Shown here piece by piece: positions 1,945-56,927 of a stretch of DNA of 64,000 bases. Made by a program: the position numbers and the translations under genes. How positions within the stretch are numbered: the first letter of the stretch is position 1; every line of letters begins with the position of its first letter. The notes below the pieces were generated by a model, which saw only the letters and a list, made by a program, of their open reading frames with translations, searched no databases and was not told where the DNA came from. Location of the stretch: assembly GCA_902472555.1 (NCBI GenBank), contig CABROF010000001.1:32025-96024 (forward strand), given 5' to 3'. This stretch comes from an uncultured Oscillospiraceae bacterium. GTDB lineage: Bacteria > Bacillota > Clostridia > UBA1212 > UBA1255.

Positions 1945-1980
1945 TAAACCTCCTCTTTTCAGCCGATCGAAGCCGTCCTA

Positions 1981-3321
1981 TCAGAAAAAGTTATCCTGCT
2001 GATATTTCTCTGCATTTGGGATCCAGCATGCGCCGCTGATCACATTGTACCGCAGTACCGTCTCCTCATCTAAAGCGCCGATAAACACGGAATATAGAGC
2101 TTCACTGCCGCAGTACACGATATTTCCTTCAATGGTGTTCCGCACGGAATCGGTAATATAAATAGATGCGCCATTGCTTTCCACAAAATAATTATTTATG
2201 ATAGAAAAATCCGTAAATTTCGAGGATGTAATGCGGACTCCGTAATAACCCCAAAAATAGTTATCCGTAATCGTAACCCCGGTGATTGTGCCTCCCCCGG
2301 AAACATCAGTCACAACGCCCCCCGGCATATCCGTCCGTTCTTCATAGCCGGTAATATCCTTATTTTTCGATCCCATATAATTATAACGAATGTCCACATT
2401 TTGAATGCCGTTCTCATCCGGATTCAAAAGAATTGCTGTTGTAGCGGCATCCAGCATATTGTTTTGGATCACGCACCCGTCCACAGCCTTAATATAGACC
2501 TGACCCGGAGCAGGAAATAAGAATACGTTCCGCAAAATATGGATTTCCCGCGGACAGCTTCCGGAATCTTCACTGTCAATCAGCACAGAATGCGGAAGAT
2601 TTCCGCCGAAATAGGAATCTGCAAGCGTATTGCATTTCATTTCTCTGCCTGTTTTTTTTGTAAAGCGCACAATATAGCCGTTTGTCGTTCCCGGACCGAA
2701 ATAGCAGCTCCCGATATAATTATCAGAGCCGCTGACCACAACGGCAGTATCCCGATTCTTTTGATTTCCCTGAAGAAATGTACACTCCGTTATGACACTT
2801 CTTTCAGAAGCAAGCTCCAGGACAGAACCTTCCGATGCATTATTTTTTAAAGATAAATATGAGATATGCACATCCGGTCTTTCAATAACGAACAAATCTC
2901 CTCCCACCACAGGGCCGGACTGAATGACCGTCTCCCGCATACGGTTGGGATCCCCGGCCAGCGTAATCGTCCCGGCGCCCTCTGCGGCGATTCGAATTGG
3001 TTCATTGACCTTATATTTTCCTTCTGGAAAATAAATCGTGCCGCCGCCTGCCGCAGCTGCATAGGCAATTGCCTCCCGTATCGCCTGCGTATCGTCAATT
3101 CTGCCGTTTCCGGCCGCACCGAAATCCATAATGTTATAAACGGCACTGTCGCCTGTCAGTACAGGTGCCTTTTGATATACAACTTCATTTTTCACATGCT
3201 CACCATCCTTTGTTGCAGTTGGTTCCGGTTTATAATCGGAATCCGAACGCCCGCCGCAGCCGGCAATCCCGAAAATCAGAAAAACCGTCAGCATACAAAT
3301 CAAATAGACTTTTAATTTCAT
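1981..3321 (-). CDS. Lipoprotein right-handed beta-helix protein of the pectate-lyase superfamily, a paralogue of the preceding gene.
   Basis: Lipobox IAGCGG. Motif YNIMDFGAAGNGRIDDTQAIREAIAYAAAAGGGTIYFPEGKYKV (the Y-DFGA-GDG-DDT-AIQ signature). It sits in tandem with the 586..1944 gene. Confidence 0.6.
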   Translation of the reverse strand: MKLKVYLICMLTVFLIFGIAGCGGRSDSDYKPEPTATKDGEHVKNEVVYQKAPVLTGDSAVYNIMDFGAAGNGRIDDTQAIREAIAYAAAAGGGTIYFPEGKYKVNEPIRIAAEGAGTITLAGDPNRMRETVIQSGPVVGGDLFVIERPDVHISYLSLKNNASEGSVLELASERSVITECTFLQGNQKNRDTAVVVSGSDNYIGSCYFGPGTTNGYIVRFTKKTGREMKCNTLADSYFGGNLPHSVLIDSEDSGSCPREIHILRNVFLFPAPGQVYIKAVDGCVIQNNMLDAATTAILLNPDENGIQNVDIRYNYMGSKNKDITGYEERTDMPGGVVTDVSGGGTITGVTITDNYFWGYYGVRITSSKFTDFSIINNYFVESNGASIYITDSVRNTIEGNIVYCGSEALYSVFIGALDEETVLRYNVISGACWIPNAEKYQQDNFF

Positions 3322-3654
3322 TCACACAGCCTCCTTATCACTTATAACTGATAAGCCTAAAACAGATTGGATTGCTTATAGGCATTACATACCGATCGCC
3401 CCTTTCCGTATAAAATCCGATACAATTCCTATTTTTCTTATAAATTGCATACAATATTTATCAGTCATGACCCAAAGCCACCTATGTTTATAAGTATAGT
3501 GATTCCGTTCCGATCCTGTATATAGGAAATGGCGATATATATTTTTAGGGTTTTCCGATATGTGTTGTTTTTTATGGAATGCTGTGATATATTATCGGTA
3601 AGCACAAAATACATTAAAATAGCTATTCTGCAGAGAAAGGGCGGTCTGTCTGAT

Positions 3655-4557
3655 ATGATTGAAGAAAAGCTGTACCGATATGCCAGAGACGGCGAACAGC
3701 TCTGTCTCAATGAATCAATTGCAGCAGATCCGATCATCGCCATGCATACCCATGATTTTATTGAATTAAGTTATATTCGAAAAGGGCATGCAGTACATCT
3801 TCTGAACGGATCGCAAATTTCTGTATCTGAGGGAGATCTCTTTTTATTAGCATACGGCTGCAGTCACACCTTTGAAGCATGTTCTCATGACTTTACATAC
3901 ATGAATGTGCTGTTCCGCCCTCAGATTTTCGGAGAATCATATCAAGACTCTCCTTATTTAGATGATATTTTTCAAATGCCGTGTTTTAGAACAGGTTTTG
4001 AGTTTAAAGCAAAAAAAATTCCGCAGATTCATTTATTCCAAATCGGAAGCACCTTTGCAGCTGATTTCAAGGCTCTGATGGATGAATATTATAAGGGGCT
4101 TCCGGGATATCAGATCATTTGTAAAAATCAGCTTGCAAATATTCTGGTCAAGATCGGGAGAACCTATATGCAGGTCAGCCATATTACCGCAAAATGCCCG
4201 GAACAAGAACTGATCCATATTATTTATGACTATTTTAAGCTTACCTCCTCATTCAGAAAGGTACGGCTGGAGGATATTGCCCAGCGGGTCTATATGCATC
4301 CCGACTATCTTGCAAAAATTTTCAAGGAAAAGGTCGGGATTAATATTTCCGTCTTTATTCGGAATATCCGGCTGGAAACAGCCGCCATGCATCTGCGGAC
4401 GACAAATATGAACGTCTGCGATATCATGCGGTTTGTCGGCTATCAGGATACAAAAAATTTCTATAAGGCATTTAAAGCAGTTTATCATCTTACGCCTGCA
4501 AAATATCGTGCACAGTATAAGCACGCGGCAGAGACAGCACGGAAATGTGCAAAATAA
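3655..4557 (+). CDS. AraC/XylS-family transcriptional regulator (cupin sensor plus C-terminal HTH).
   Basis: The C-terminus IAQRVYMHPDYLAKIFKEKVGINISVFIRNIRLETAAMHLRTTNMNVCDIMRFVGYQDTKNFYKAFKAVYHLTPAKYR is an AraC HTH. The likely start is ATG 3655 (MIEEKLYRY), preceded by AAAGGG. The track ORF begins at 3529 through an AT-rich promoter region. Confidence 0.75.
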   Translation: MIEEKLYRYARDGEQLCLNESIAADPIIAMHTHDFIELSYIRKGHAVHLLNGSQISVSEGDLFLLAYGCSHTFEACSHDFTYMNVLFRPQIFGESYQDSPYLDDIFQMPCFRTGFEFKAKKIPQIHLFQIGSTFAADFKALMDEYYKGLPGYQIICKNQLANILVKIGRTYMQVSHITAKCPEQELIHIIYDYFKLTSSFRKVRLEDIAQRVYMHPDYLAKIFKEKVGINISVFIRNIRLETAAMHLRTTNMNVCDIMRFVGYQDTKNFYKAFKAVYHLTPAKYRAQYKHAAETARKCAK

Positions 4558-4601
4558 ACTGTCCATTATCCATTTACGCACAGCTCGCGTTCTGGCGGAG
4601 A

Positions 4602-5621
4602 TTAGTTACCATAATTTTCTGTATTTCTGCAAACGGATTCATAGTAATGCTTCAGCAGATCAGCCTGTTTTTGGAGATCGCGGCTTTTTGCGACCTGATA
4701 TCCGGCTTCTGTTAATCTGCATAATTTTCCTTCCAGGATTCCTGATATATATGCGGAAAACTGCTCATTATCCTTTGCCTTGTAAACCTGCAGTCCGTTT
4801 TCGAGCCATTTGTCGTATACCGGAATCGACCGCAGCAGCACTGGAATCTTTGTCGCCAGCGCTTCGAGCACTACAATTCCTTCCGTTTCCTCATAGGAGG
4901 GGAAGAAAAACAAATCGGCGCCACTGTATGCACCGCGCAATTCATCCTTTGTAACGTATCCGGCGAACTTTAAATTTGGAAGCTCCGTGCGCAGCGCTTT
5001 TCGGATCTTCCTCGGAATCAGAGCCGGGTTGGTATGACCAAACCAGATAAACTGATATTGCGGCATATGCTTTGCAATTTCCACAAAATCCAGGATTCCC
5101 TTTCGTTCAAAAAACAATCCTACGGACATAACGATCTTCTCGTCCGCTCCGTATCCGTATTTTTTTCGAAAAGCCTTTCCTGCTTCTGCATCCGGATAAA
5201 ACAGATTTGTGTCGACGCCATTGGAGATGGAACGGATCGGCTTCGTAATCCCGTATTCCTCCAAAAGTCCTTTCGAATATTCCGTAGGCGTTAAAATCAG
5301 ATCTCCGGTACTGTAGCATTTTTTGATCCATGATTTAAAAAGAGGTGCGATCAGATTAGACCCGACAAAGGAATTTTGAAAATCCTCCTTTGTTGAATGG
5401 GCATGATATACCACGGCCTTTCCCTGCCGTTTTGCCCGTTTGCTCATCAGGTAATCTCCGGGAAAGATCGTATTGATATGTATGATATCGTATGCATCTT
5501 TTGTATTTGTAGTTACCTCTATATTATTTTTCGTAAGCGATTCGACCTGCATTTGCATTGCTCTGCCGACGCCGCTCTGCCTCACTGTCTCCAAGTGTTT
5601 GGAATATATCAAAACTTTCAT
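4602..5621 (-). CDS. Family GT4 glycosyltransferase, probably a glycolipid (diacylglycerol) glycosyltransferase.
   Basis: MKVLIYSKH N-terminus and the EETEGIVVLEALATKIPVL (E-x7-E) motif. It overlaps the upstream GT by about 98 nt. Confidence 0.75.
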   Translation of the reverse strand: MKVLIYSKHLETVRQSGVGRAMQMQVESLTKNNIEVTTNTKDAYDIIHINTIFPGDYLMSKRAKRQGKAVVYHAHSTKEDFQNSFVGSNLIAPLFKSWIKKCYSTGDLILTPTEYSKGLLEEYGITKPIRSISNGVDTNLFYPDAEAGKAFRKKYGYGADEKIVMSVGLFFERKGILDFVEIAKHMPQYQFIWFGHTNPALIPRKIRKALRTELPNLKFAGYVTKDELRGAYSGADLFFFPSYEETEGIVVLEALATKIPVLLRSIPVYDKWLENGLQVYKAKDNEQFSAYISGILEGKLCRLTEAGYQVAKSRDLQKQADLLKHYYESVCRNTENYGN

Positions 5622-41443: not shown

Positions 41444-42550
41444 TTACAGGTTTTTCAGCAGGGACAGCACTTCATCAATTTCATCTTTTGTATTGAAATA
41501 GTTAAAGCTAAACCGGACCGTTCCCCGTTCCTGTGTGCCGATCGCTCTGTGCGCAAGCGGCGCACAGTGAAATCCGGGTCTGCTGCAGACGGATTGATCG
41601 CCTAGAAAAGAGCCTACCCGAACCGGATCCCTGCCCTTAATATTGATCGATACCACCCCTGCAAAACGGTCGGGACATTCGGTGCCGCCGTATACGATGA
41701 TATTCGGCAGCCGCAGCGCCCGTTCAACAAAATATTGGCGCAGCGTGCGGTCCTTTGCACGGATCTGCTCCAGACCCACGGATTTTATAAAATCCAGTCC
41801 TGCGCCCAGTGCTGCAACTCCGTGGGTATTTACGGTTCCGGCTTCAAAGCAGTCGGGCATATCCTTAGGCTGCGTCAGTTCAAAGCTTTTGCTGCCGGTT
41901 CCGCCGCACATATACGGCCGAATCCGGACATGCGGCGCAACATAAATGCCGCCGGTCCCCTGTATGCCAAACAATCCTTTGTGACCGGTAAAGCACAATA
42001 CATCAATATTCATTTTTTCTACATCAAGTTCTTCGACGCCTGCACTTTGCGCTGCATCAACAATAAATGTGACGCCCTTCTCTCTGCATGCCGCACCGAT
42101 TTTCCGTATATCGTAAATCTGTCCGGTAACATTTGAAATATGCGTCATCATGACGGCTCCGGTGACATCGGAGATGGATTTAATCACTTTGTCGGCTTCA
42201 ATTCCGCCGTTTCGGTCCGCCTTCACAATATGATAATACCCTCTTGATACGCAGGGCCGCAGTACGGAGTTGTGATCCATTTCTGTAATTACAATCTGTC
42301 CGTAACATAAATTTGCCGCAATATTCAGCGCATGTGTCGCATTCATAGTAAATGCAATGCGCAGCGGGTCTTTTACATGAAATAATTCCGCTGCCTTTTC
42401 CCGCACCTCGAATAATTTATACGCAGACCATTTTGCTGCACTGTGCGTCCCGCGGCCGGGATTTCCCGCGTTCTCCAAGGATTCCAGCAGGGCCTCTTTC
42501 ACACCCGGCGGTTTTGGCCAGCTCGTTGCGGCATTATCAAAATATATCAT
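41444..42550 (-). CDS. Class-V aminotransferase / cysteine desulfurase family protein (NifS/selenocysteine-lyase-like).
   Basis: MIYFDNAATSWPKPPGV ... PLP-lysine region FTGHKGLFGIQGTGGIY. Confidence 0.7.
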   Translation of the reverse strand: MIYFDNAATSWPKPPGVKEALLESLENAGNPGRGTHSAAKWSAYKLFEVREKAAELFHVKDPLRIAFTMNATHALNIAANLCYGQIVITEMDHNSVLRPCVSRGYYHIVKADRNGGIEADKVIKSISDVTGAVMMTHISNVTGQIYDIRKIGAACREKGVTFIVDAAQSAGVEELDVEKMNIDVLCFTGHKGLFGIQGTGGIYVAPHVRIRPYMCGGTGSKSFELTQPKDMPDCFEAGTVNTHGVAALGAGLDFIKSVGLEQIRAKDRTLRQYFVERALRLPNIIVYGGTECPDRFAGVVSINIKGRDPVRVGSFLGDQSVCSRPGFHCAPLAHRAIGTQERGTVRFSFNYFNTKDEIDEVLSLLKNL

Positions 42551-52048: not shown

Positions 52049-53197
52049 CTATTCGCCGGCTTCTAATCTGGTCACGGCATCCGCGGACACGCGTACCACC
52101 GGCCGGATTCCCACTGCTGTATCATTGACGGCATAGCCGTTGCCAATGTCGCCGAAGCGGTAAACAGCCTGCATATAGGTGCTAATTCCCGGCGAACGCA
52201 GCCACCAGATGCACTCATTTTTGCTGCCTGCAGATACGCCCCTGCTCACTGCATAAGGAGTCGCATAAACAACACGAGTACTGTTTGCATTTTCCGGATG
52301 ATCCGCAGTAATGTTCTCAACAGAAAAAATCTTGTATGTACCATCCGCTTCCTGACTGCTGAGTAAATAAATATAATCCGTTGTTTCGCCTCCGCCTAAA
52401 GTCCCATAGACTTCATGATCCTCCGTTTGAATTACGGACGGACGGATGGCGCCGCGTTCTTCCTCAGAAAACGCACGATGATAAAAATTCCAGTAATTTT
52501 TGTACTTTGCGCCGCCGACTGCGTATTCATCCGTACCATTCAGCCAATCTCTCATAGAGGAATCCGCCCAGCTGACCGCGCCGTATTGATCATGGAACGG
52601 CAGTCCGCTTTCGATTACCGATTCTGTAATCAGCAGCAGCGTATTGTCCTTCGATTCCAGAACCAGCCAAGTGATGGGTTCTACCAAAAAATAATTGCTT
52701 CCCTGCAAAACGTAATATTGTGTCTCCCCATATTCTACATTTACAGGCGGCGCCGTCGCCTCTTCAGAAGAAGAGCCAGCCGTTGCCGCAGGTGTTTCCG
52801 CAGGATCGGCTGTGGCGGCGGGAGTCGGAGCGGCTAACGCCGGCTGATAGCAATAAAAGCCATATTCTCTGTCATACCAGGCCTTTCCGTCAGCGCCTGC
52901 ATACTCTGTCCAGTTTCCTGTATCCGCGTCGATTTTTACATTTCCATTCAGCAAAGATGCAACATTGGCGGCTGCCTGCGATTTCGGATAGCTTCCAAAG
53001 TTAACGCGCTCCGGCGCTGCAGTAGGCTGAACCGACAATGTATCCTCATGCCCTTTTGCCGACCACTTTTCATCCTTCTGCGGAGTCTCCGAACAACCGG
53101 CAAAAATCAACAGAGCCGCGGCAATGACTGCCATAAATACAGCGAAGCACCATTTTCTTGACATTCTAATTCCTCCTGAATCCGTTACAAGTACCAC
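52049..53197 (-). CDS. Hypothetical secreted lipoprotein with an Ala/Thr/Pro-rich linker.
   Basis: Lipobox IFAGCSE. Low-complexity PTPAATADPAETPAATAGSSSEEATAPP. The C-terminal region has a WWLRSP motif. Confidence 0.4.
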   Translation of the reverse strand: MVLVTDSGGIRMSRKWCFAVFMAVIAAALLIFAGCSETPQKDEKWSAKGHEDTLSVQPTAAPERVNFGSYPKSQAAANVASLLNGNVKIDADTGNWTEYAGADGKAWYDREYGFYCYQPALAAPTPAATADPAETPAATAGSSSEEATAPPVNVEYGETQYYVLQGSNYFLVEPITWLVLESKDNTLLLITESVIESGLPFHDQYGAVSWADSSMRDWLNGTDEYAVGGAKYKNYWNFYHRAFSEEERGAIRPSVIQTEDHEVYGTLGGGETTDYIYLLSSQEADGTYKIFSVENITADHPENANSTRVVYATPYAVSRGVSAGSKNECIWWLRSPGISTYMQAVYRFGDIGNGYAVNDTAVGIRPVVRVSADAVTRLEAGE

Positions 53198-53301: not shown

Positions 53302-54492
53302 CTAACTATCATACACCTGCACATCCGCCGCCGCGGTATCCTCAAGCCGGGCAAAATCCACTTTTGCCTCCTGTTCCAGAATTTCATGCAGCTGCGGTCT
53401 GGTCCGCGGATGCTTCGGCGTAAATACCGTACAGCAATCTTCATACGGTAAAATGCTGGTATCAAAGGTGCCGATCCGCCTTGCTACGGCGACTACCTCC
53501 ATTTTATCCATTCCGATCAAAGGACGGAATACAGGCATAGCGGCAGCGGCATCCGTACAATAAATCGCCTGCATGGTCTGACTTGCCACCTGACCTAAGC
53601 TCTCTCCCGTTACCAGAGCTGAGCAGCCGTATTTCCGCGCCAGGCGCTCTGCAATACGCATCATGGAGCGCCGCATAAGCACCGTGCTCAGGTCTTCCCG
53701 GCAGTTCTCATTAATTGCAAGCTGAATGTCCGTAAACGGTACCACCAGGATACGCATATTTCCCGTATATTCGGCCAGCAGCCGTCCGAGCTCCAGCACT
53801 TTTTCTTTCGCGCGTTCGCTCGTATAAGGATAGCTGTGAAAATGTACGGCGCAGAGACTGACCCCTCTTTTACCGATCATATATCCCGCAACCGGACTGT
53901 CAATGCCGCCGGAAAGCAGCAGACAGGCCTTCCCGTTGCAGCCGGACGGCATACCGCCTTGGGCAGGAATCACATCCGTATATAAATAAGACTCCTCCCG
54001 AACCTCAATAAACAACGTAAAATCCGGCTGTTTGACATCCACCCGCAGAAGTGGAAAGCGCTCCAGCAGCACTGCCCCTATCGCTGCGGAAATTTCCGGC
54101 GATGTCATGGGGAAGCTTTTCATACCGCGTTTTGTTTCCACTTTAAAAGTAATATATTCTTTACGGGCTCCCGTCCCGATCCGATCCACCACGGTCTGCA
54201 CCAGCGCAATTGATTTTTTTACAATCACCTCATAATCAGAGGCCGTCACATGCGCAGGACTCAGCGATACGATGCCGAAAACCCGTGACAAACAGTCGAG
54301 GGCCTTTTCAAATTGAAAATCCAGGCCTGTCGGTTCTACGAAAAAACGGGATTGAGACCAGCGGATATCAGCCGTCCCGCAGCCGGCTATGGCAGTTTTC
54401 ATATTACGGGCAAGACGCTGTTCAAACGTACTGCGATTCAACCCCTTCAGCGCAATTTCTCCGATTCTTGCCAAAATCACACGTTCTGTCAT
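53302..54492 (-). CDS. thiI: tRNA 4-thiouridine(8) synthase.
   Basis: MTERVILARIGEIALKGLNR (THUMP) ... LLSGGIDSPVAGYM (PP-loop SGGxDS). Confidence 0.9.
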   Translation of the reverse strand: MTERVILARIGEIALKGLNRSTFEQRLARNMKTAIAGCGTADIRWSQSRFFVEPTGLDFQFEKALDCLSRVFGIVSLSPAHVTASDYEVIVKKSIALVQTVVDRIGTGARKEYITFKVETKRGMKSFPMTSPEISAAIGAVLLERFPLLRVDVKQPDFTLFIEVREESYLYTDVIPAQGGMPSGCNGKACLLLSGGIDSPVAGYMIGKRGVSLCAVHFHSYPYTSERAKEKVLELGRLLAEYTGNMRILVVPFTDIQLAINENCREDLSTVLMRRSMMRIAERLARKYGCSALVTGESLGQVASQTMQAIYCTDAAAAMPVFRPLIGMDKMEVVAVARRIGTFDTSILPYEDCCTVFTPKHPRTRPQLHEILEQEAKVDFARLEDTAAADVQVYDS

Positions 54493-54493
54493 T

Positions 54494-56401
54494 TTATTCT
54501 CCTTTTCCCCCGTTTTTTCCGTATTTTCTGTGATTTCTCGCCCGAAGCTTTTTTACCTCCGCGCAAAGGGCATCACCGGCGGCTTCTGCCTCTTCCATTG
54601 TATTATAAGGCGAAAAGCTAAGCCTAACCGCTCCGTCGATGGCTTTGACATCATATCCCATAGCCGTCAGGACATGGCTCCGGTTTTTCTTGTGGGACGA
54701 ACAGGCAGATCCGACGGAGAGGAAGACCCCTCTTGCTTCCAAGCTGTGCAGCAGCACTTCGCCCCGCAGCCCCGGAAAAGCCACGCAGAAAATATACGGC
54801 GAACATGTCTCGTCGCTGATCATTTCATAAGTATGCAGCTGACTGCGGATGATTTCCGCAAGACGGTCCCGAATCCGGCGTACATGTGCAGCATGCTGTT
54901 CTATTTCCGCGCACATCTGCTCCGCCGCAACGCGAAATCCGGCAATTGCTGGAAGATTTTCCGTACCAGAGCGCAGACCTGCTTCCTGTCCGCCCCCGAT
55001 CAGAAGCGGATCCATTTTTATCCCTTTTCTGACATACAGAAACCCAACACCTCTGGGACCGTGAATTTTATGACCGCTGCCGCTCAGAAGATCAACTCCC
55101 ATAGATTCTGCGGAAATAGGCAGTTTGCCGAAGCTTTGTACTGCATCCGTATGAAGGACCGTCTGCGGGTTCATCCGGCGGCGAATTTCGGAAATTTCGC
55201 GGATCGGCTGCACCGCACCGGTTTCACTGTTCACATGCATAACGGAAATCAACGCGGTATCCGGCCGTATCATACTCTGCAGTGCAGAAAGGTTGGTCTT
55301 TCCATCCGCATGTACGGGAATCAACTGCACCTCATAGCCGCACTTTTCGAGATATACGGCGGTCTCAAGTACAGACGGATGTTCCGTGGAAGAAACCAAA
55401 ATATGCTTTCCTTTTCTGGGGTTTGCACTTAGATAGCCGCGCAGTGCCCAATTATTGGATTCCGTTCCGCCTGAGGTGAAATAAATATTCCCTGCTGCGC
55501 CGTTTCTCTCAGAAACGCCGATTCCGGCAGCAATGGTCTCCCGGCAGGCCTTCAGTTCTTTTTCTGCCGTCAAGCCGAGATGGTGCAAAGAGGAAGGATT
55601 TCCGTATATCCGGCTGCTGACGCGAACCATTTCCGCCGTCACGGCAGGAAGCTGCCGCGTCGTTGCGCTGTTATCCAAATAAATTGTTTTCTCAAGTTCC
55701 TTTTGTTCTGTATACCGCTGATATAAATCAGGCCGTTTTTTTGCCGTCCTGCTGAGGGCCTGTTCATACCGCCATGCATCTATTTGTGCATGATTTCCGG
55801 AAAGCAGCACTTCTGGGACCGCCATCTGATCAATGATAACCGGCCGTGTATACTGGGGATATTCCAGCAGGCCGTCGGCATGTGATTCCGTCCGATAAGC
55901 CTCCTCGCAGGCAAGTACACCGGGGATCAGGCGGCAGACACAATCAGCAAGCGCCATTGCCGGAATTTCACCTCCGGTCAGCACATAATCACCGATAGAA
56001 ATTTCCTCGTCGACAATCGTATCAAGGACACGTTCGTCGATGCCCTCATAATGGCCGCAGATAATTGCAAGATTATGCTTGCCGGCCAGCCGTTCCGCCG
56101 CCGGCGTCAGCGGTGTTCCCTGAGGCGACATATAAATACAGTACGGCTTTTCATAGCCGGCCTTTTGATTCTCCTCCGTCACATGTGCAAACGCATCCCG
56201 AAGGGGCTGATACGACAGAATCAGTCCGGGACCGCCTCCGTACGGATAATCGTCTACTTTTCCCTGTTTATTGTCCGTATAGTCTCTGATTTGATGAAAA
56301 AAGACAGAAAAACAGCCGTTTTCAATTCCTCTGGCAAGAATGCTTTCCGCAAAGGCAGCCCGTACCATATCAGGAAATAAAGTTAAAATATCAATCCGCA
56401 T
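54494..56401 (-). CDS. trmD: Single 635-aa ORF: tRNA (guanine37-N1)-methyltransferase TrmD (residues about 1..245) fused in frame to a NifS/IscS-type cysteine desulfurase.
   Basis: N-terminus: MRIDILTLFPDMV ... ICGHYEGIDERV ... LTGGEIPAMALADCVCRLIPGVL ... LLSGNHAQIDAWR. It then runs directly into TIYLDNSATT ... SGSGHKIHGPRGVGFLYV (PLP-Lys). There is no stop at the junction near 55690. Confidence 0.75.
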   Translation of the reverse strand: MRIDILTLFPDMVRAAFAESILARGIENGCFSVFFHQIRDYTDNKQGKVDDYPYGGGPGLILSYQPLRDAFAHVTEENQKAGYEKPYCIYMSPQGTPLTPAAERLAGKHNLAIICGHYEGIDERVLDTIVDEEISIGDYVLTGGEIPAMALADCVCRLIPGVLACEEAYRTESHADGLLEYPQYTRPVIIDQMAVPEVLLSGNHAQIDAWRYEQALSRTAKKRPDLYQRYTEQKELEKTIYLDNSATTRQLPAVTAEMVRVSSRIYGNPSSLHHLGLTAEKELKACRETIAAGIGVSERNGAAGNIYFTSGGTESNNWALRGYLSANPRKGKHILVSSTEHPSVLETAVYLEKCGYEVQLIPVHADGKTNLSALQSMIRPDTALISVMHVNSETGAVQPIREISEIRRRMNPQTVLHTDAVQSFGKLPISAESMGVDLLSGSGHKIHGPRGVGFLYVRKGIKMDPLLIGGGQEAGLRSGTENLPAIAGFRVAAEQMCAEIEQHAAHVRRIRDRLAEIIRSQLHTYEMISDETCSPYIFCVAFPGLRGEVLLHSLEARGVFLSVGSACSSHKKNRSHVLTAMGYDVKAIDGAVRLSFSPYNTMEEAEAAGDALCAEVKKLRARNHRKYGKNGGKGE

Positions 56402-56927
56402 GGTACACTTCCCTCAGTCCGGGCAATAGCTTGACTGTGATCTCTCCGGCCGCGATGTCAATCCGCAGAATAACCTCTCCGATTGCAGGCAATAAAATCT
56501 CAGCGCCCTGTTCAGATACCACCCGATATACGTCATTGCTGCCCGTCTGGAAGACATCCCGTACGAAGCCAAGGACAGTCCCGTCGGATTCCGTAACACG
56601 GCATCCGATCAGATCCCCAATAAAATAATGATCCTCAGGAAGTACAATGGCCTCCTCCCGGGGGATTTCCAGCAAAGCACCGCGCAGCATCATCGCTTTG
56701 TCGCGGTCGTCAATTCCTTCTAACTGCAATAAAACAAAATTGCCCGCCAAAACGGCAGACACAACGGCATAAATTTTTTTCTCGGTCTTTTTATGGTTCT
56801 GATGGGAAACCGTAACCTGTTTCAACGTGCGGAATCGTTTGGGATCATCCGTCAGGGGCGTCACCTTCAGCGCCCCCCTGACGCCATGAACATTCACGAT
56901 CTCACCGATAATCAATGATTTGAGCAA
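56391..56927 (-). CDS. rimM: Ribosome maturation factor RimM.
   Basis: MLKSLIIGEIVNVHGVRGALKVTPLTDDPKRF. The gene order is ffh-rpsP-KH-rimM-trmD. Confidence 0.85.
   Translation of the reverse strand: MLKSLIIGEIVNVHGVRGALKVTPLTDDPKRFRTLKQVTVSHQNHKKTEKKIYAVVSAVLAGNFVLLQLEGIDDRDKAMMLRGALLEIPREEAIVLPEDHYFIGDLIGCRVTESDGTVLGFVRDVFQTGSNDVYRVVSEQGAEILLPAIGEVILRIDIAAGEITVKLLPGLREVYHAD

Follow-up and report, generated by a model that had tools for sequence, protein, structure and literature searches.

A TrmD-cysteine desulfurase fusion encoded directly upstream of thiI is conserved in a clade of gut and rumen Clostridia

The DNA analysed here, referred to as the window, is a stretch of 64,000 nucleotides (nt) from an uncultured Oscillospiraceae bacterium (assembly GCA_902472555.1, contig CABROF010000001.1). 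On its reverse strand, at 54494..56401, the trmD reading frame runs on past the methyltransferase domain into a complete cysteine desulfurase of the NifS/IscS type. Both the open reading frame (ORF) listing and the sequence give a single ORF that opens with ATG and runs through 635 codons without an internal stop. This fusion is a genuine gene inherited across a clade. Judging from its sequence, it probably yields one polypeptide with two intact enzymes, a TrmD for 1-methylguanosine at position 37 of tRNA (m1G37) and a NifZ-like desulfurase that supplies sulfur to ThiI; the most likely description is a bifunctional tRNA-modification enzyme. The domain architecture is new and is built from two well-known enzymes. 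An earlier note on this DNA had reported a single frame leading from TrmD into NifS, in an otherwise canonical ffh-rpsP-KH-rimM-trmD operon and 1 nt from thiI, and had considered a covalent fusion unusual. These observations held. The ORF is uninterrupted with both domains at full length in Pfam and NCBIfam searches, ffh, rpsP, KH and rimM lie upstream in the window, and thiI starts 1 nt past the TAA of the fusion, where the sequence reads GGAGAATAAaATG. The covalent arrangement proved to be a conserved architecture in which both active sites are intact.

In the Pfam search, tRNA_m1G_MT matched residues 26-224 (173.5 bits) and Aminotran_5 (PF00266) matched residues 240-606 (254.1 bits, profile positions 1-369 of 371). 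This head-to-tail join of two full-length domains recurs in about 105 diverged homologues, which is far beyond chance. At the 90% identity level, these homologues form about 105 clusters of full-length fusions, 609-652 amino acids long, all of which contain both Pfam domains. The clusters are 48-62% identical to the window protein, and pairwise identities among them go down to 46%. Their sources are all gut or rumen metagenome-assembled genomes (MAGs) labelled Clostridia, Clostridiales, Ruminococcaceae or Oscillospiraceae, with no cultured member among them.

Closely related copies were found as well. The exact 635-amino-acid protein of the window (P0122) is present in both NCBI and ENA. A form with one extra residue (P0001, 636 amino acids) is encoded, with the same neighbours, on 19 contigs, including the NCBI MAG GCA_965317325.1 and three unrelated Logan assemblies. 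The window is 99.86% identical over 13.9 kb to another contig, L001, and their only differences within the gene are one in-frame indel of 3 nt and one substitution.

The earlier note had allowed that a sequencing or assembly error, or a recent mutation in the strain, might have removed the trmD stop codon from genes that are really separate. In two related lineages trmD and nifS are indeed separate genes that overlap, and a single indel at such a junction would mimic a fusion. The alternative does not survive the comparison with other genomes. The same or a near-identical protein occurs in the independent assemblies described above; the roughly 105 clusters, diverged to 46% identity, have linkers that differ in both sequence and length; and the fusion was kept even in a locus where the gene has moved out of the rimM operon (L087). 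A systematic homopolymer error cannot account for junctions of differing sequence. We therefore treat the probability of an artefact as negligible. The note had also suggested a comparison of orthologous loci for a stop codon at the junction. Two sister lineages have the stop and a separate nifS, and the pattern is not uniform, the approximately 105 clusters being fused.

Residue conservation was counted over 106 fusion sequences, and active-site residues were mapped through alignments to Staphylococcus aureus TrmD (3KY7) and Thermotoga maritima NifS (1ECX). In the TrmD half, G56-G59, G116-G120, D122, R124, S135, G137, D138, E145, R157, and E180 are invariant in 106/106 fusions. In the desulfurase half, the same is true of H341, D419, Q422, K445, R477, C567, and R593. 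Because the active-site residues are unchanged in all 106 sequences, purifying selection would have maintained function in both halves throughout the history of the clade.

The TrmD half exceeds the cut-offs of both NCBIfam TrmD equivalog models, with 276.7 bits for TIGR00088 (cut-off 195; residues 1-235, profile positions 1-229 of 233) and 283.1 bits for NF000648 (cut-off 220). Its closest solved structure is S. aureus TrmD 3KY7 (E=4e-68), with which it has the LLE[YF]PQYTRP motif in common. The motifs GGGPG, CGHYEGxDxR, SxGD, and TGGE are invariant in the fusion TrmD halves. E180 (55862..55864) lies inside LLEYPQYTRP and aligns with the Glu of 3KY7 at the general-base position, which we take to be the position of Escherichia coli D169. 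Since S. aureus TrmD has the same motif, a Glu at this position is a normal Firmicute variant. On these features the TrmD half should be the S-adenosylmethionine (SAM)-dependent m1G37 methyltransferase of the cell, and the fusion would be the only trmD in the genome. If instead an active trmD were encoded elsewhere, the TrmD half could be a catalytically retired tRNA-binding module that recruits tRNA to NifS and ThiI. This is extremely unlikely, given that the gene occupies the canonical position after rimM, scores above both equivalog cut-offs, and retains every SAM-binding and catalytic residue checked in all 106 sequences.

Small differences between gene models were seen within the TrmD half. 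At about 56100..56106 (TrmD codon ~100) the window has 3 nt fewer than L001 (AGG on the coding strand, in a GCGGCGGCGG repeat), and this changes ...PLTQAAAERL... in L001 to ...PLTPAAERL... in the window. The Gln that is missing from the window is the majority residue at this position in the family alignment; the 635- and 636-amino-acid forms are both in public data (P0122 and P0001). Some fusion gene calls start about 12 codons late (MVGAAFQESI..., in loci L085 and L086 5001, proteins P0068 and P0047), and P0126-P0128 from the same cluster are 623 amino acids long. These calls reflect a difference in start-codon calling and not a truncated TrmD.

The desulfurase half has the class-V aminotransferase fold with an HK-motif Lys for pyridoxal 5'-phosphate (PLP) and the Cys loop of group I. 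Group-I desulfurases carry the loop motif SSGSACTS, as opposed to RxGHHCA in group II. Its closest solved structure is the T. maritima NifS-like protein 1ECX (E=1e-85). The NCBIfam NifS/IscS models match residues 240-621 end to end, all of them under their equivalog cut-offs. Because these cut-offs are not reached, we call this half NifS/IscS-like, and neither NifS nor IscS.

An Arg/Lys-rich C-terminal tail is found in this NifS subfamily whether the protein is fused or free (RARNHRKYGKNGGKGE in the window, within 54497..54560, and NRRYKFRRNS in another member; P0113, P0115-P0120). It lies outside the alignment to T. maritima NifS 1ECX and could be a contact for ThiI or tRNA. The idea that the basic tail is an RNA-binding addition specific to the fusion was rejected, as standalone relatives carry similar tails.

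The junction reads ...KRPDLYQRYTEQKELEKTIYLDNSATT... The linker, counted after the conserved RPD of TrmD and before the Y that opens Y[FL]DNSATT, is variable in sequence; it measures 5, 15, 16, and 31 amino acids in 14, 65, 26, and 1 clusters, respectively. An AlphaFold2 model of the monomer confirmed both folds and gave a helical linker, with the last TrmD helix (residues 224-237) leading straight into the NifS strand at 240-241 (predicted local distance difference test score, pLDDT, 81).

The earlier note had also raised internal initiation as a possibility and had pointed to a TTG at about 55676. The codon is there (L242, 55676..55678, in frame and just 3' of the junction), and a TTG at codon 242 is also present in locus L092. 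Together with the variable linker, for which confidence in the model is only moderate, it leaves room for a desulfurase made in addition, or even predominantly, on its own, through internal initiation or through proteolysis of the linker. We scanned the interval from -90 to +12 nt around the junction for in-frame ATG, GTG, or TTG codons preceded at 3-18 nt by a Shine-Dalgarno motif. Across 8 distinct fusion loci, no junction combined such a motif with a start; three (L005, L087, L093) had no in-frame candidate codon in this interval at all. The TTG of the window has no Shine-Dalgarno motif upstream, and a start at L242 would delete the conserved I-Y of the first NifS strand. Unfused relatives, by contrast, have a clear GGAG or AAGGAG and a nifS start. 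Among the fusion clusters the desulfurase half does not begin with a conserved Met, and the 5-amino-acid linker in 14 clusters also speaks against a separate product. A promoter scan of the locus returned match counts near the shuffle expectation and no convincing internal promoter before the TrmD/NifS junction. In the absence of start codons at the junction, the desulfurase would be translatable only within the fusion in at least three lineages. Internal initiation, as read from these sequences, is not a conserved feature, and a separately made desulfurase is very unlikely.

The product of the downstream thiI matched NCBIfam TIGR00342 with 355.6 bits (cut-off 264.5). A GGAG ribosome-binding site for thiI lies within the last codons of the fusion, and with the 1-nt spacer the sequence indicates that thiI is translationally coupled to it. 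All loci that reach far enough past the fusion have thiI next (the window, L005, L085, L088, L092, L093, and L087). In the last of these, which encodes the most divergent fusion (P0106, 48% identity), the pair is found at 1962..5230 after pgi, outside the rimM operon, with a 165-nt gap between the two genes. As the pair has been relocated and is still fused and paired, it appears to move as a unit. The earlier note had expected a nifS-thiI pairing like that of nifZ and thiI in Bacillus, and a rhodanese-less thiI is indeed the constant neighbour in all related loci.

In Bacillus subtilis, NifZ and a rhodanese-less ThiI are sufficient for the formation of 4-thiouridine (s4U) in tRNA (PMC5372745). 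In the fusion, the TrmD half would methylate G37 of tRNA with SAM, while the desulfurase half, using PLP and Cys567, would take sulfur from cysteine as a persulfide. This persulfide may be passed directly to the rhodanese-less ThiI, which would make s4U at position 8 (s4U8), the two proteins alone being enough by analogy with B. subtilis. The net effect of the fusion would be expression of both activities at a fixed 1:1 ratio and possibly a tRNA-binding enzyme held near the sulfur relay. We infer that both halves are active and that the desulfurase is dedicated to ThiI; any coupling of the two, kinetic or physical, would be an inference as well.

The desulfurase half might alternatively be the general sulfur donor for iron-sulfur (Fe-S) clusters, as NifS and IscS are, with the adjacency to thiI being incidental. 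The FeS_nifS model TIGR03402 is its top NCBIfam match, and the nearest solved structures are general NifS/IscS proteins. The 376.9 bits of that match are, however, well under the cut-off of 530.75 bits, no nifU or iscU adjoins the fusion, and thiI is a coupled neighbour in every locus, including the relocated pair of L087 and the nifS-thiI unit of an outgroup (L091). In Bacillus, moreover, each acceptor has its own dedicated desulfurase (PMC5372745). The window has a further gene of the cysteine desulfurase family at a distance of 12 kb, and because of it the fused enzyme need not be the general desulfurase of the cell. All in all, a general donor is unlikely. The second gene (41444..42550, reverse strand) encodes 368 amino acids with 25% identity to the fused NifS domain; its product scores 377.7 bits against TIGR01977 (am_tr_V_EF2568; cut-off 377), and its presence fits the Gram-positive pattern of several dedicated desulfurases.

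Several points weigh against a bifunctional enzyme that serves ThiI. The desulfurase half falls short of the NCBIfam cut-offs (376.9 vs 530.75 bits for TIGR03402, 279.1 vs 643.2 for TIGR02006, and 295 vs 304 for NF002806), and for this reason its subfamily and its sulfur acceptor are read solely from gene context. The AlphaFold2 monomer has a predicted template modelling score (pTM) of 0.62, and the relative orientation of the two domains in it is uncertain. TrmD and NifS/IscS are both obligate homodimers, and a tether of 5-16 amino acids must allow both interfaces to form. Finally, the weak neighbour-joining tree discussed below settles neither how many fusions and fissions took place nor in which direction, and does not separate one fusion with a later fission from several independent fusions.

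The fusion might go beyond co-expression and build a physical tRNA-modification assembly that couples or orders m1G37 and s4U8. The protein might close into a dimer, or its TrmD and NifS dimers might alternate in an open chain or ring, with ThiI docked there as well; U8 could then be thiolated within the same particle in a tRNA whose anticodon arm is bound by TrmD. This reading is on balance doubtful.

Two related lineages have the same gene order without the fusion. In L090 (GCA_016294925.1; rimM-trmD-nifS-thiI), trmD encodes 233 amino acids, its TGA overlaps the TTG start of nifS by 4 nt (TTGA), and a GGAG lies 8 nt upstream of this start. In L094 and L095, two independent assemblies, trmD and nifS overlap by 8 nt (ATGAATGA), and nifS has an ATG start with AAGGAG upstream. 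These loci look like the state before the fusion, or else like a secondary split. In L090, the TrmD tail after RPD (11 amino acids) and the NifS residues before I-Y (3-4 amino acids) add up to about 15 amino acids, and the dominant fusion linker measures 15-16. This match in length points to a small indel of 1-2 nt at the overlapping stop and start as the origin, without loss of residues. In more distant standalone relatives, nifS and thiI form a two-gene unit away from trmD (L091). In a neighbour-joining tree of the NifS domain, the unfused pair adjacent to trmD (P0111/P0114) falls beside or inside the fused radiation, with the free nifS-thiI group branching outside that radiation. An indel at overlapping trmD and nifS genes is the most likely origin of the fusion. 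A nifS-thiI pair would have landed behind trmD, the trmD stop would then have come to overlap the nifS start, and an indel of 1-2 nt would have put the two frames in register, with the natural TrmD tail becoming the linker.

We also scanned GTDB genomes with TrmD peptide patterns. Among the Clostridia matches listed, one genome has the fusion (L005) and 79 loci do not. No nifS or thiI was found within 5 kb of the standalone trmD in 77 of these listed loci, and the other two (L010 and L049) have an unlinked nifS-like gene 1.5-4 kb from trmD, in L049 about 1.5 kb downstream. With a B. subtilis sequence as probe, rplS was found after trmD in only about 16 of the 80 loci from Clostridia, and the window gave no match. 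The possibility that nifS-thiI had displaced rplS was dropped, as the lack of rplS after trmD is not specific to the fusion clade.

When 1.84 billion representatives at 50% identity were searched in full with HMMER, a single protein had both domains (P0097, 695 bits); standalone desulfurases with at most 400 bits came next. Other TrmD-NifS fusions would have outscored these, and the architecture therefore belongs to one compact clade. The earlier note had remarked that a fusion common in its clade would be ordinary. Inside the clade it is the rule, as that remark supposed; the database at large confines it to a single 50%-identity cluster. Public annotation labels the fusion proteins simply "TrmD". 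We found no published description of a TrmD-NifS fusion in the searchable literature, whose coverage leaves out most subscription-journal papers, and the fusion appears to be undescribed so far. Other fusions of group-I desulfurases were seen, namely a monogalactosyldiacylglycerol (MGDG) synthase/GT28 domain with NifS (P0257, 763 amino acids), NifS with NTPase_1 (P0305, 556 amino acids), and NifS with TusA (P0296, 476 amino acids). The coordinates of the locus are collected in Table 1.

Table 1. Elements of the fusion locus and their positions in the window.
Feature	Position	Strand	Remarks
TrmD-NifS fusion ORF	54494..56401	-	635 amino acids; stop TAA at 54494..54496; protein P0122
TrmD domain (SPOUT tRNA m1G37 methyltransferase)	55697..56401	-	residues 1-235; GGGPG, CGHYEGxDxR, E180
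Junction	55682..55726	-	residues ~226-240 (LYQRYTEQKELEKTI); natural TrmD C-terminal tail into first NifS strand
Junction-spanning peptide of the fusion			for example YTEQKELEKTIYLDNSATTR
Group-I (NifS/IscS/NifZ-type) cysteine desulfurase domain	54539..55684	-	residues 240-621
PLP-binding H444-K445	55067..55072	-	aligns with SAHKFHGPKG of 1ECX
Catalytic C567 in SVGSACSS	54701..54703	-	aligns with SSACTS of 1ECX
Basic C-terminal tail of the desulfurase (…RARNHRKYGKNGGKGE)	54497..54538	-	last codons carry the GGAG of thiI
thiI	53302..54492	-	396 amino acids; ThiI_fer, THUMP and ThiI PP-loop, without rhodanese domain
rimM	56391..56927	-	overlaps the ATG of the fusion by 11 nt; marks the canonical ffh-rpsP-KH-rimM-trmD operon position

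The next gene after thiI (52049..53197, reverse strand) encodes 382 amino acids with a hydrophobic N-terminal segment. The Pfam hits for L001 assign this protein to DUF6273, it had no NCBIfam match, and the gene is not kept next to thiI in the other fusion loci. A 347-amino-acid ORF on the forward strand (54389..55432), opposite the desulfurase half, is almost certainly a shadow of the coding strand and not a gene.

TrmD, an antibiotic target, is indispensable to bacteria, and to our knowledge all studies of it have dealt with a free homodimer. The gut and rumen clade described here would make it as the N-terminal half of a protein of about 70 kDa, presumably its sole form of TrmD. The fusion is a natural Rosetta-stone link between m1G37 and s4U8, two modifications thought to be independent, and with the unfused overlapping form still present in relatives it illustrates cleanly how a frameshift at overlapping cistrons can fuse two genes. 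It also raises the structural question of how two obligate homodimers assemble on a very short tether. At a practical level, the "TrmD" label keeps both the desulfurase and the s4U pathway of these genomes out of sight. If the halves merely work side by side, the fusion is a modest evolutionary curiosity; its significance rises if it couples both modifications or forms an unusual assembly.

Compared with canonical TrmD (S. aureus 3KY7, E. coli 1P9P, and Haemophilus influenzae 1UAK), the fusion shares a full-length match above the cut-offs, the slot after rimM, and the motifs, whereas its C-terminal tail, unlike that of the standalone enzymes, runs on into a PLP enzyme of 390 amino acids. A standalone trmD is also what the sample of 78 other Clostridia genomes showed. 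The unfused sister operons (L090 and L094/L095) have the same gene order, and their NifS proteins are 54-57% identical to the NifS half of the window; in these operons, however, the trmD stop overlaps the nifS start in another reading frame, and nifS has its own Shine-Dalgarno motif. With the NifZ-ThiI system of B. subtilis, the fusion shares a group-I desulfurase gene directly upstream of, and coupled to, a rhodanese-less thiI, and the outgroup locus L091 has the same two-gene unit. The desulfurase of the fusion differs in being the C-terminal half of a TrmD protein and not a free enzyme, and the likeness is one of gene context. Fusions among tRNA-modification and sulfur-relay proteins include E. 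coli ThiI with its rhodanese domain and the bifunctional MnmC. These two and the NifS-TusA protein P0296 follow the same principle as TrmD-NifS, the covalent joining of related tRNA-modification or sulfur-relay steps. They join consecutive steps of one pathway, whereas TrmD-NifS joins two chemically unrelated modifications, m1G37 and s4U8, that have only the tRNA substrate in common.

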